Below, in pieces: positions 53,817 to 53,901 of a stretch of 64,000 nt of DNA. The DNA is taken from the sequence record PQ356295.1. One strand, 5' to 3'. Position numbers and translations under genes: made by a program. The notes below the pieces were generated by a model that worked only from the letters and a program-made list of their open reading frames with translations, was not told where the DNA came from and did no database searches. Every line of letters starts with the position of its first letter. The stretch's first letter is position 1. Source of the stretch: Escherichia phage KKE7M.

Positions 53817-53901
53817 TGGCGATGGATCAAGGATTTGAACCTTGCTAGAACTTTCGTTCACGGATTAACAGTCCGTCGCCCAACCACTAGGCCAATCCAT
53901 C
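53817..53901 (-). tRNA. tRNA with Asn anticodon GUU and a long (15-nt) variable arm
   Basis: Perfect acceptor, T-arm CAAGG/CCTTG, anticodon arm ACGGA-CUGUUAA-UCCGU, discriminator G; extra arm GAAC-GAAA-GTTC gives a class II shape unusual for Asn. Confidence 0.6.

Follow-up and report, generated by a model that had tools for sequence, protein, structure and literature searches.

Escherichia phage KKE7M (sequence record PQ356295.1) carries, within the 64,000-nucleotide stretch analysed here (the window), a transfer RNA (tRNA) gene that combines the asparagine anticodon GUU with a 15-nucleotide (nt) extra arm. In the textbook view, long extra arms in bacteria are restricted to the leucine, serine, tyrosine and selenocysteine tRNAs, in which they act as identity or discrimination elements; here such an arm sits on a tRNA whose remaining identity marks all indicate asparagine. 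We consider it probable that the gene encodes a functional phage tRNA-Asn for AAC and AAU codons, most likely charged with asparagine by the host asparaginyl-tRNA synthetase (AsnRS) and lying within a probably co-transcribed Lys-Tyr-Asn-Thr block. It belongs to a widespread class of long-armed tRNA-Asn, common in phages and rare in cells, that is apparently undescribed: the full-text literature searched held no description of one, with an earlier mention in subscription journals being possible.

A tRNA-Asn cloverleaf with a structured extra arm

On the minus strand, ARAGORN calls an 85-nt tRNA-Asn with anticodon GTT that spans precisely 53817-53901. The Rfam tRNA model RF00005 matches 53820-53901 over its full length (1-71) with 56.5 bits (E 1e-10, gathering score 29), placing about 12 extra nt in the variable position and forming no non-standard pairs. 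Folded by free energy, the 85-nt RNA adopts a cloverleaf with an added GAAC/GUUC hairpin (-29.5 kcal/mol, z = -2.57), and 3 of 200 shuffled versions fold as stably. The three methods agree on a GUU tRNA with a long variable arm and return the same 15-nt arm with its GAAC-GAAA-GUUC hairpin, both of which an earlier sequence-only reading had described. That reading had also proposed a covariance-model and ARAGORN check for a fold with a short variable loop, which none of the three methods gives. The perfect acceptor stem, canonical T-arm and discriminator G that it reported are directly visible in the sequence, and the likeness it saw to the anticodon stem-loop of bacterial tRNA-Asn extends to 16 of 17 positions shared with E. 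coli asnT.

The stem layout is that of an ordinary tRNA, with a 7-base-pair (bp) acceptor stem and a 5-bp T-stem, and D-loop G18G19 is retained. Table 1 lists the pieces in the 5' to 3' order of the RNA; they are joined by UG between acceptor stem and D-arm and by a single G between D-arm and anticodon arm. One element needed revision. The D-stem had been described as 3 bp long, but a length of 4 bp fits better: the Rfam alignment has four standard pairs (G10-C25, C11-G24, C12-G23 and U13.G22), and pair 13-22 forms in 10 of 12 relatives with variation on both sides. The D-arm of this subfamily is therefore best classed as class I type. The phAPEC8 homologue has a 3-bp D-stem and a 10-nt loop.

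Judged against the class II shape, the RNA possesses the required stem-loop of more than 10 nt (15 nt, 4 bp, covarying) and lacks the matching D-arm, which would have a 3-bp stem, unpaired 13/22 and an enlarged loop; here U13.G22 can pair and the loop is 7 nt. Judged against canonical tRNA-Asn, it departs in the variable loop, with 15 nt in place of 4-5 nt. The body is thus a hybrid of a class-I-type 4-bp D-stem and an extra arm with the geometry of bacterial tRNA-Tyr.

Conservation and compensatory change

Around the gene, the sequence agrees at 100% with Escherichia phage EC_OE_11 (OQ108497; Justusliebigvirus, Stephanstirmvirinae, phi92 group), and 135 phage records match this region. In about 50 phage records (e.g. 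Paula, alia and phi92) the tRNA itself is 100% identical, while the surrounding 401 nt show 88-95% identity. Invariance of the tRNA between diverging flanks points to purifying selection and makes it very unlikely that the gene is a pseudogene. OQ108497 and many relatives annotate it as tRNA-Asn, and the GenBank records give no more than that label.

We retrieved homologues from Klebsiella phage phi1_175008, Salmonella phage PVP-SE1 (Vequintavirinae), phAPEC8 (Phapecoctavirus) and the Demerecviridae Lindwurm, Stubb and PSTCR5. All carry the extra arm with a GAAA loop, and across relatives the stem is built as GAAC/GUUC, GAGA/UCUC, GAGU/ACUC, GUUC/GAAC, GUUC/GGAC or GUC/GAC. The comparison with related phages that the sequence-only reading had called for therefore finds the arm in relatives from three lineages. 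In an alignment of 12 gaplessly alignable sequences from these lineages (Stephanstirmvirinae, Vequintavirinae and T5-like Demerecviridae), every cell of the extra-arm helix is paired (100%), and 3 of its 4 pairs show double-sided change. All 7 acceptor pairs also vary on both sides, and the structure as a whole is 98.7% paired, compared with 66% in shuffles and 34-49% when the partners are slid. Because it is kept by compensatory substitutions, we regard the extra arm as a selected structural element.

An acceptor end for asparagine

In E. coli, asparagine identity consists of the anticodon G34-U35-U36 and G73, and these elements alone transplant it to another tRNA (PMC9976931). The AsnRS set is complete in the window tRNA, with GUU in a CUGUUAA loop and G73, and because both are present we infer charging by the host AsnRS. 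Variable-loop length is not described as an AsnRS determinant in the tRNA-identity literature searched. A U1-A72 first pair is the asparagine signature of the transamidation (GatCAB) route (PMC9976931). The window tRNA has G1-C72 instead, followed by A2-U71 and U3-A70. E. coli uses AsnRS, hence U1-A72 is not required in that host.

Charging by the tyrosyl-, leucyl- or seryl-tRNA synthetase (TyrRS, LeuRS, SerRS) is disfavoured because A73, needed by TyrRS and LeuRS, and G2-C71, A3-U70 and a Ser-type arm, needed by SerRS, are absent. For LeuRS and TyrRS, G73 acts as an antideterminant; serine identity relies on the arm together with G73 and acceptor pairs, and bacterial tRNA-Ser conserves G1-C72 and G2-C71 (PMC9976931). 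The gene has G73 and GUU, not the A73 and GUA of tRNA-Tyr. It shares G1-C72 and G73 with tRNA-Ser, but its 2-71 and 3-70 pairs are A-U and U-A, and its 4-bp arm stem with 3 unpaired 3' bases differs from the arm of tRNA-Ser (Table 2).

The same holds at the level of the class, whose acceptor end is clearly Asn-like and not Ser-, Tyr- or Leu-like (Table 2). A naive-Bayes profile of the tRNA body (54 structural positions, without anticodon, D-loop and arm), a crude classifier with a leave-one-out accuracy of 0.55-0.97 depending on isotype, scores Asn best for 85 of the 142 long-arm tRNAs.

Table 2. Acceptor ends and variable-arm geometry by tRNA group (n refers to the acceptor-end columns)
Group	n	U1-A72	G1-C72	G2-C71	A3-U70	Discriminator	Arm stem	5' unpaired	3' unpaired
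Long-arm GUU (Asn)	142	70%	27%	41%		G73 92% (130/142)	mostly 3-4 bp	0-1	3-4
Short-arm Asn	136	69%	29%	36%		G73 97%			
Ser	126		89%	94%	85%	G73 69%	mostly 4-7 bp	mostly 1	mostly 1
Tyr	72		85%	76%	25%	A73 100% (72/72)	3-4 bp	0-1	about 3
Leu	103		35%	17%		A73 98%	mostly 3-5 bp	mostly 0	mostly 1

Long-armed tRNA-Asn in viruses and cells

A first scan of IMG/VR looked for a T-arm 16-28 nt beyond an Asn anticodon arm; with calls verified by ARAGORN, it recovered at least 115 distinct long-arm GUU tRNAs (variable region 9-27 nt) in very diverse contigs. A normal short-arm tRNA-Asn is also present in the same stretch in 24 of 119 loci, among the matches listed. The second scan admitted any variable-loop length, so it was unbiased for arm length, and counted loci with an ARAGORN Asn call: 14 had a long-arm tRNA-Asn against 94 with short-arm forms only (13%), and in stretches with at least 5 tRNAs the numbers were 13 and 46 (22%). 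By comparison, 596 Gb of bacterial and archaeal genomes yielded 102 stretches with the long-arm pattern, 54 of them ARAGORN-confirmed as long-arm tRNA-Asn, and many of these cellular matches lie in dense arrays (10-35 tRNAs per 8 kb) that resemble phage or array-unit DNA. The shape had been called unusual, which is right for cellular genomes; in phages it is no isolated case.

A chromosomal form does occur. A conserved tRNA-Asn, about 85 nt long, recurs in about 20 metagenome-assembled genomes (MAGs), many of which bear the label Solirubrobacterales. It has U1-A72, G73 and an arm of the form GYCC-GAAA-GGRC, in which Y and R change in compensation (loci L134, L145-L150, L173, L179, L190, L193, L200, L201, L214, L217, L219 and L220). 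In at least 15 related species the gene sits at a syntenic locus on the chromosome, and it is the sole tRNA per 8-kb stretch, which suggests that a long arm appears compatible with service as a cellular tRNA-Asn. A variable segment adjoining this locus looks like an integration hotspot. Separately, three Verrucosispora/Micromonospora chromosomes (L129, L131 and L152) have arrays of 32-35 tRNAs within 8 kb, and each array includes a long-arm tRNA-Asn that has U1-A72, G73 and an arm of 17 nt.

Other isotypes in the same viral contigs (IMG/VR loci L002-L121 and L224-L330) also have arms of at least 10 nt by ARAGORN: Ile(UAU) in 10 of 24 genes, Cys in 11/51, Thr(UGU) in 15/95, Met or Ile2(CAU) in 18/140, Trp in 6/68, Ile(GAU) in 8/88 and Lys(UUU) in 5/77. 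No such arm was found by ARAGORN in these contigs among 80 Ala(UGC) or 44 Arg(ACG) genes. The discriminators of these non-canonical long-arm tRNAs suit the amino acid of the anticodon, for example U73 on Cys and G73 on Trp. In Klebsiella phage phi1_175008, an 89-nt tRNA-Glu(UUC) (L334 4286-4374) has a 4-bp extra arm with a GAAA loop.

Origin of the arm

The arm geometry of long-arm tRNA-Asn matches that of phage and bacterial tRNA-Tyr, not that of Ser or Leu (Table 2). A tRNA-Tyr gene directly precedes the Asn gene by 7 nt, both in the window and in phAPEC8, and the anticodon change GUA to GUU is a single substitution; Ser(GCU) is likewise one step away and already has G73. Over 54 structural positions the nearest neighbours are other long-arm Asn tRNAs, followed by a mixture of Asn, Ser, Gln and Tyr. 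An origin by anticodon shift in a class II scaffold is plausible on these comparisons. The sequence-only reading had suggested a remodelled Tyr-type gene, for which the arm geometry, the adjacent tRNA-Tyr and the single anticodon change speak; the body singles out no donor, the D-stem is class-I-like and the acceptor end of the class is Asn-like, not Tyr-like. Descent from tRNA-Ser(GCU) by C35U is disfavoured, as pairs 2-71 and 3-70 and the arm geometry are not Ser-like, and is kept as a minor rival. In a Chromatiales MAG (L182 5291-5376), a GUU anticodon sits in a body typical of bacterial tRNA-Tyr, with A73 and with a D-arm and extra arm of Tyr type; this tRNA may represent an intermediate one step along, or may place tyrosine at asparagine codons.

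Such an origin leads to the strongest alternative, in which the arm is a functionless structural legacy of a class II ancestor, either Tyr(GUA) altered by A36U and A73G or Ser(GCU) altered by C35U. AsnRS would have captured the gene through its anticodon and G73, the core would have co-adapted to the arm, and the molecule would work as an ordinary tRNA-Asn. The Tyr-like geometry (3-4 bp, 3-4 unpaired 3' bases) and the neighbouring tRNA-Tyr fit this account, as does the frequency of G9, typical of class II, in long-arm Asn tRNAs (41%, against 7% of short-arm ones). The long-arm Thr(UGU), Cys(GCA), Ile(UAU/GAU), Met(CAU) and Trp(CCA) tRNAs are each one substitution from a Leu, Ser or Tyr anticodon as well, and the Chromatiales gene looks intermediate. 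Yet the body sequence identifies no donor, tRNA-Tyr is enriched as a neighbour only about two-fold (8/121 against a 3.2% baseline), the D-stem of the window subfamily is class-I-like, and Val(UAC) and Ala(UGC), whose anticodons are also a single step away from class II ones, hardly ever bear long arms. That the long-arm form is so strongly enriched in viruses relative to cells, and that a normal tRNA-Asn often lies alongside it among the loci listed, suggests in addition that it is kept for a reason. We regard a purely inherited arm as possible but rather unlikely.

The tRNA block and anti-phage nucleases

The Asn gene is the third of four tRNA genes separated by spacers of 5, 7 and 90 nt (Table 1), and the order Lys-Tyr-Asn-Thr is found again in phAPEC8 and Klebsiella phage phi1_175008. 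No promoter-like site lies immediately upstream of the Asn gene, and TTGACA-type sites occur further upstream at 54989 and 54848. Given the spacers, the four genes are probably co-transcribed. The window has a GC content of 38%, and its long open reading frames (ORFs) use, per 1000 codons, 58 AAC+AAU, 41 AAA, 30 UAU and 32 ACA; by these counts the four tRNAs of the block would supply heavily used codons.

The isoacceptors of the block are also those hit by known E. coli anti-phage nucleases. AriB of the PARIS system cuts E. coli tRNA-Lys(UUU) as well as tRNA-Thr(UGU) and, less efficiently, tRNA-Asn(GUU) between positions 40 and 41, after U36-A-A-U-C, and the Lys, Thr and Asn variants of phage T5 together defeat PARIS and rescue infection (PMC12409363). 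The T5 changes shown to block cleavage are U16 to C and U39 to A, and C16 placed in E. coli tRNA-Lys impairs AriB cleavage (PMC12409363). PrrC targets tRNA-Lys and the retron-Eco7 PtuAB targets tRNA-Tyr (PMC11555353). In the window, tRNA-Lys has C16 and tRNA-Thr has G39 for U39, and tRNA-Asn keeps the host sequence UAAUC↓C at the AriB cut site, with the arm starting three nt after the cut. The tRNA-Asn of T5 is short-armed with a mutated anticodon stem, and that of its relative Lindwurm pairs a host-like stem with the arm. An arm is thus absent from the PARIS-rescuing tRNA-Asn of T5, a 78-nt RNA with a short variable loop.

We tentatively suggest that the arm could be an alternative escape for this tRNA from host tRNA-targeting nucleases, an idea that we regard as unlikely. 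In this scheme the arm, set next to an otherwise host-like anticodon arm, would turn the phage tRNA into a poor substrate for such nucleases, and AsnRS, EF-Tu and the ribosome would nevertheless take it. Slightly more doubtful is the general form, in which long arms on viral Asn, Thr, Cys, Ile, Met and Trp tRNAs would constitute a phage counter-defence device: the arm would alter the shape beside the anticodon stem and block docking of nucleases such as PARIS AriB, with aminoacylation and decoding preserved, as an alternative to the anticodon-stem point mutations of T5.

Weighing the charging and function of the RNA

Several points weigh against a functional, asparagine-charged tRNA with a purposeful arm. 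By the crude body profile the window tRNA scores highest as Ser (39.3 bits), with Asn second (31.6) and Tyr third (28.4). In the phage's tRNA-Ser(GCU), too, the arm has only 4 bp and a GAAA loop, and the length of the arm is therefore not enough to rule out SerRS. Synthetases of class II that belong to the Asp/Asn/Lys type approach the tRNA from its variable-loop side, as in the yeast and E. coli AspRS-tRNA complexes, and an extra arm could therefore hinder AsnRS. As to the arm's purpose, the phage is AT-rich and enriched in AAA, AAU, UAU and ACA alike, so that codon supply and nuclease evasion are inseparable here, and the shielding idea draws on a published AlphaFold 3 model of AriB, two contrasting phages and geometric reasoning.

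The first of these points bears on a second alternative, that SerRS (or TyrRS) charges the tRNA wholly or partly, placing serine (or tyrosine) at asparagine codons as a mistranslating or dual-identity tRNA, in the manner of allo-tRNAs or of nematode class II tRNAs whose anticodons are non-Leu. Its G1-C72, C11-G24, G9 and G73 and its arm, about the same size as that of the phage's tRNA-Ser(GCU), are compatible with this. The Ser score, however, arises from G1-C72, G5-C68, G9 and C12-G23 and not from the Ser hallmark pairs: A2-U71 and U3-A70 replace the G2-C71 and A3-U70 found in 94% and 85% of Ser tRNAs and described as absolutely conserved in bacterial tRNA-Ser, and at the foot of the arm the number of unpaired bases resembles Tyr and not Ser. 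For TyrRS, G73 is an antideterminant, and A73 is found in all 72 Tyr tRNAs. U1-A72, the Asn/GatCAB signature, dominates the long-arm class. The Asn gene is also the only GUU tRNA in the window, and asparagine codons make up about 6% of coding sequence; proteome-wide substitution would be costly, and the gene is still perfectly conserved. We consider mischarging improbable.

Least probable of all, and in our view highly improbable, is that the RNA is a tRNA-shaped decoy that titrates a host tRNA-targeting nuclease or another tRNA-binding factor, its arm blocking productive cleavage: overexpressed viral tRNAs possibly inhibit AriB by competition (PMC12409363) and a host-like anticodon arm would keep nuclease recognition, but the full AsnRS set, encoded CCA, canonical T-loop, G18G19 and Asn-type acceptor end are what selection for aminoacylation and decoding would be expected to leave, and a chromosomal cellular version exists in a syntenic locus of at least 15 MAG species.

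The surrounding tRNA cluster

ARAGORN finds 15 tRNA genes in the window, on the minus strand between 52360 and 55223. The ORFs within this cluster encode an HNH homing endonuclease and proteins without known function; no tRNA-modifying enzyme, ligase or synthetase was found among them. The HNH gene (PHROG 4234, E 5e-25) overlaps the 5' end of tRNA-Lys by 21 nt and recalls endonucleases of the T4 and T5 tRNA regions.

Table 1. Features of the tRNA-Asn gene and its surroundings in the window
Feature	Position	Strand	Description	Basis
Four-tRNA block	53652-54075	-	Lys-Tyr-Asn-Thr	ARAGORN
tRNA-Lys(UUU)	54001-54075	-	first in transcription order	ARAGORN
tRNA-Tyr(GUA)	53909-53995	-	second in transcription order	ARAGORN
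tRNA-Asn(GUU)	53817-53901	-	third in transcription order	ARAGORN
Acceptor stem, 5' strand	53895-53901	-	GAUGGAU (positions 1-7); 7 bp, all Watson-Crick	
D-arm	53878-53892	-	GCCU-AGUGGUU-GGGC; 4-bp stem including U13.G22, 7-nt loop, class-I type	Rfam alignment, covariation
Anticodon arm	53860-53876	-	ACGGA-CUGUUAA-UCCGU; GUU at 53867-53869	16/17 positions as in E. coli asnT
Extra arm	53845-53859	-	15 nt	ARAGORN, Rfam, free-energy fold; covariation
Extra arm, 5' stem strand	53856-53859	-	GAAC	
Extra arm, tetraloop	53852-53855	-	GAAA	
Extra arm, 3' stem strand	53848-53851	-	GUUC	
Extra arm, unpaired	53845-53847	-	UAG	
T-arm	53828-53844	-	CAAGG-UUCAAAU-CCUUG, canonical	Rfam, covariation
Acceptor stem, 3' strand	53821-53827	-	AUCCAUC, partner of GAUGGAU	
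Discriminator	53820	-	G73	sequence
Encoded CCA	53817-53819	-	CCA	sequence
tRNA-Thr(UGU)	53652-53726	-	fourth in transcription order	ARAGORN
HNH homing endonuclease gene	54055-54435	-	inside tRNA cluster	PHROG 4234
tRNA-like gene, anticodon UCU (Arg)	54871-54949	-	discriminator G, CCA encoded	Rfam, 38.6 bits
tRNA(CAU)	52582-52660	-	79 nt	
Weak tRNA-like match	52444-52504	-	adjoining tRNA-Ile	22.9 bits

Other members of the cluster have odd shapes of their own. The tRNA-like gene with anticodon UCU is not called by ARAGORN and is unannotated in OQ108497. In it, 4 nt replace the D-arm, and a 20-nt insert occupies the variable position, with a loop, AGUAAUUGGAG, that is D-loop-like. Just upstream of this gene is the cluster's best promoter-like site, TTGACA-17-TATAGT at 54989-54961. 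Conservation of the gene is 83-100% across Stephanstirmvirinae, Felixounavirus and further phages, where some annotations list it as 'tRNA-OTHER'. The tRNA(CAU) has an 11-nt D-loop and an unpaired first position, and its phAPEC8 counterpart is annotated 'tRNA-Pseudo-CAT'. In Salmonella phage PVP-SE1, an 86-nt tRNA-Lys (L333 3348-3433) with a normal UCCGA-CUUUUAA-UCGGA anticodon arm carries about 11 extra nt between D-arm and anticodon stem, and ARAGORN misreads it as having a 4-base anticodon.

Discussion

The window tRNA combines features of several known systems. With the E. coli tRNA-Asn genes asnT/U/V/W it shares GUU, G73, the 7/5 layout, the 4-bp D-stem and nearly the whole anticodon arm, and the long-arm and short-arm classes are alike in their acceptor-stem statistics. 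E. coli tRNA-Asn differs in having a 5-nt variable region, A9 and U1-A72, in place of 15 nt with a 4-bp hairpin, G9, G1-C72 and C12-G23. Bacterial tRNA-Tyr(GUA) offers the same 3-4 bp arm with about three unpaired 3' bases, G34/U35 and an adjoining gene, whereas its A73, 3-bp D-stem and 10-12 nt loop contrast with G73, U36, a 4-bp D-stem and a 7-nt loop. The tRNA-Asn(GUU) of phage T5 likewise comes from an E. coli phage tRNA cluster with homing endonuclease genes, but it is 78 nt long with a short loop and has UAAGUU at the cut site, where the window tRNA has UAAUCC and an arm.

Two groups of tRNAs with unorthodox long arms also invite comparison. Allo-tRNAs, from bacteria or phages, join a long variable arm to an anticodon that is not one of Leu, Ser or Tyr; they have 8/4 or 9/3 stems and Ser or Ala identity (Mukai et al. 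2017, PMC5389517). The window tRNA has 7/5 stems and the Asn set, and we rejected its assignment as an allo-tRNA on its stems. Hamashima et al. are said to have described V-arm tRNAs of nematodes and other eukaryotes that have tRNA-Leu bodies and are charged with leucine despite a non-Leu anticodon. These resemble the window tRNA in joining a class II-like arm to the anticodon of an amino acid served by class I tRNAs, and are an analogue, not a relative: they are eukaryotic and their charge mismatches the anticodon, whereas here the acceptor end matches the amino acid of the anticodon.

A tRNA of this shape raises the question of whether a class IIb synthetase (AsnRS, or a non-discriminating aspartyl-tRNA synthetase with GatCAB) can accommodate an extra arm, and of how far tRNA identity changes through single anticodon substitutions in class II scaffolds. 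An AsnRS-accepted scaffold of different shape could aid orthogonal tRNA engineering. The class also raises the question of whether phages use the shape of a tRNA, beyond the sequence of its anticodon stem, against tRNA-targeting immunity, and long-arm tRNAs could aid the prediction of therapeutic phages that resist PARIS-like defences.

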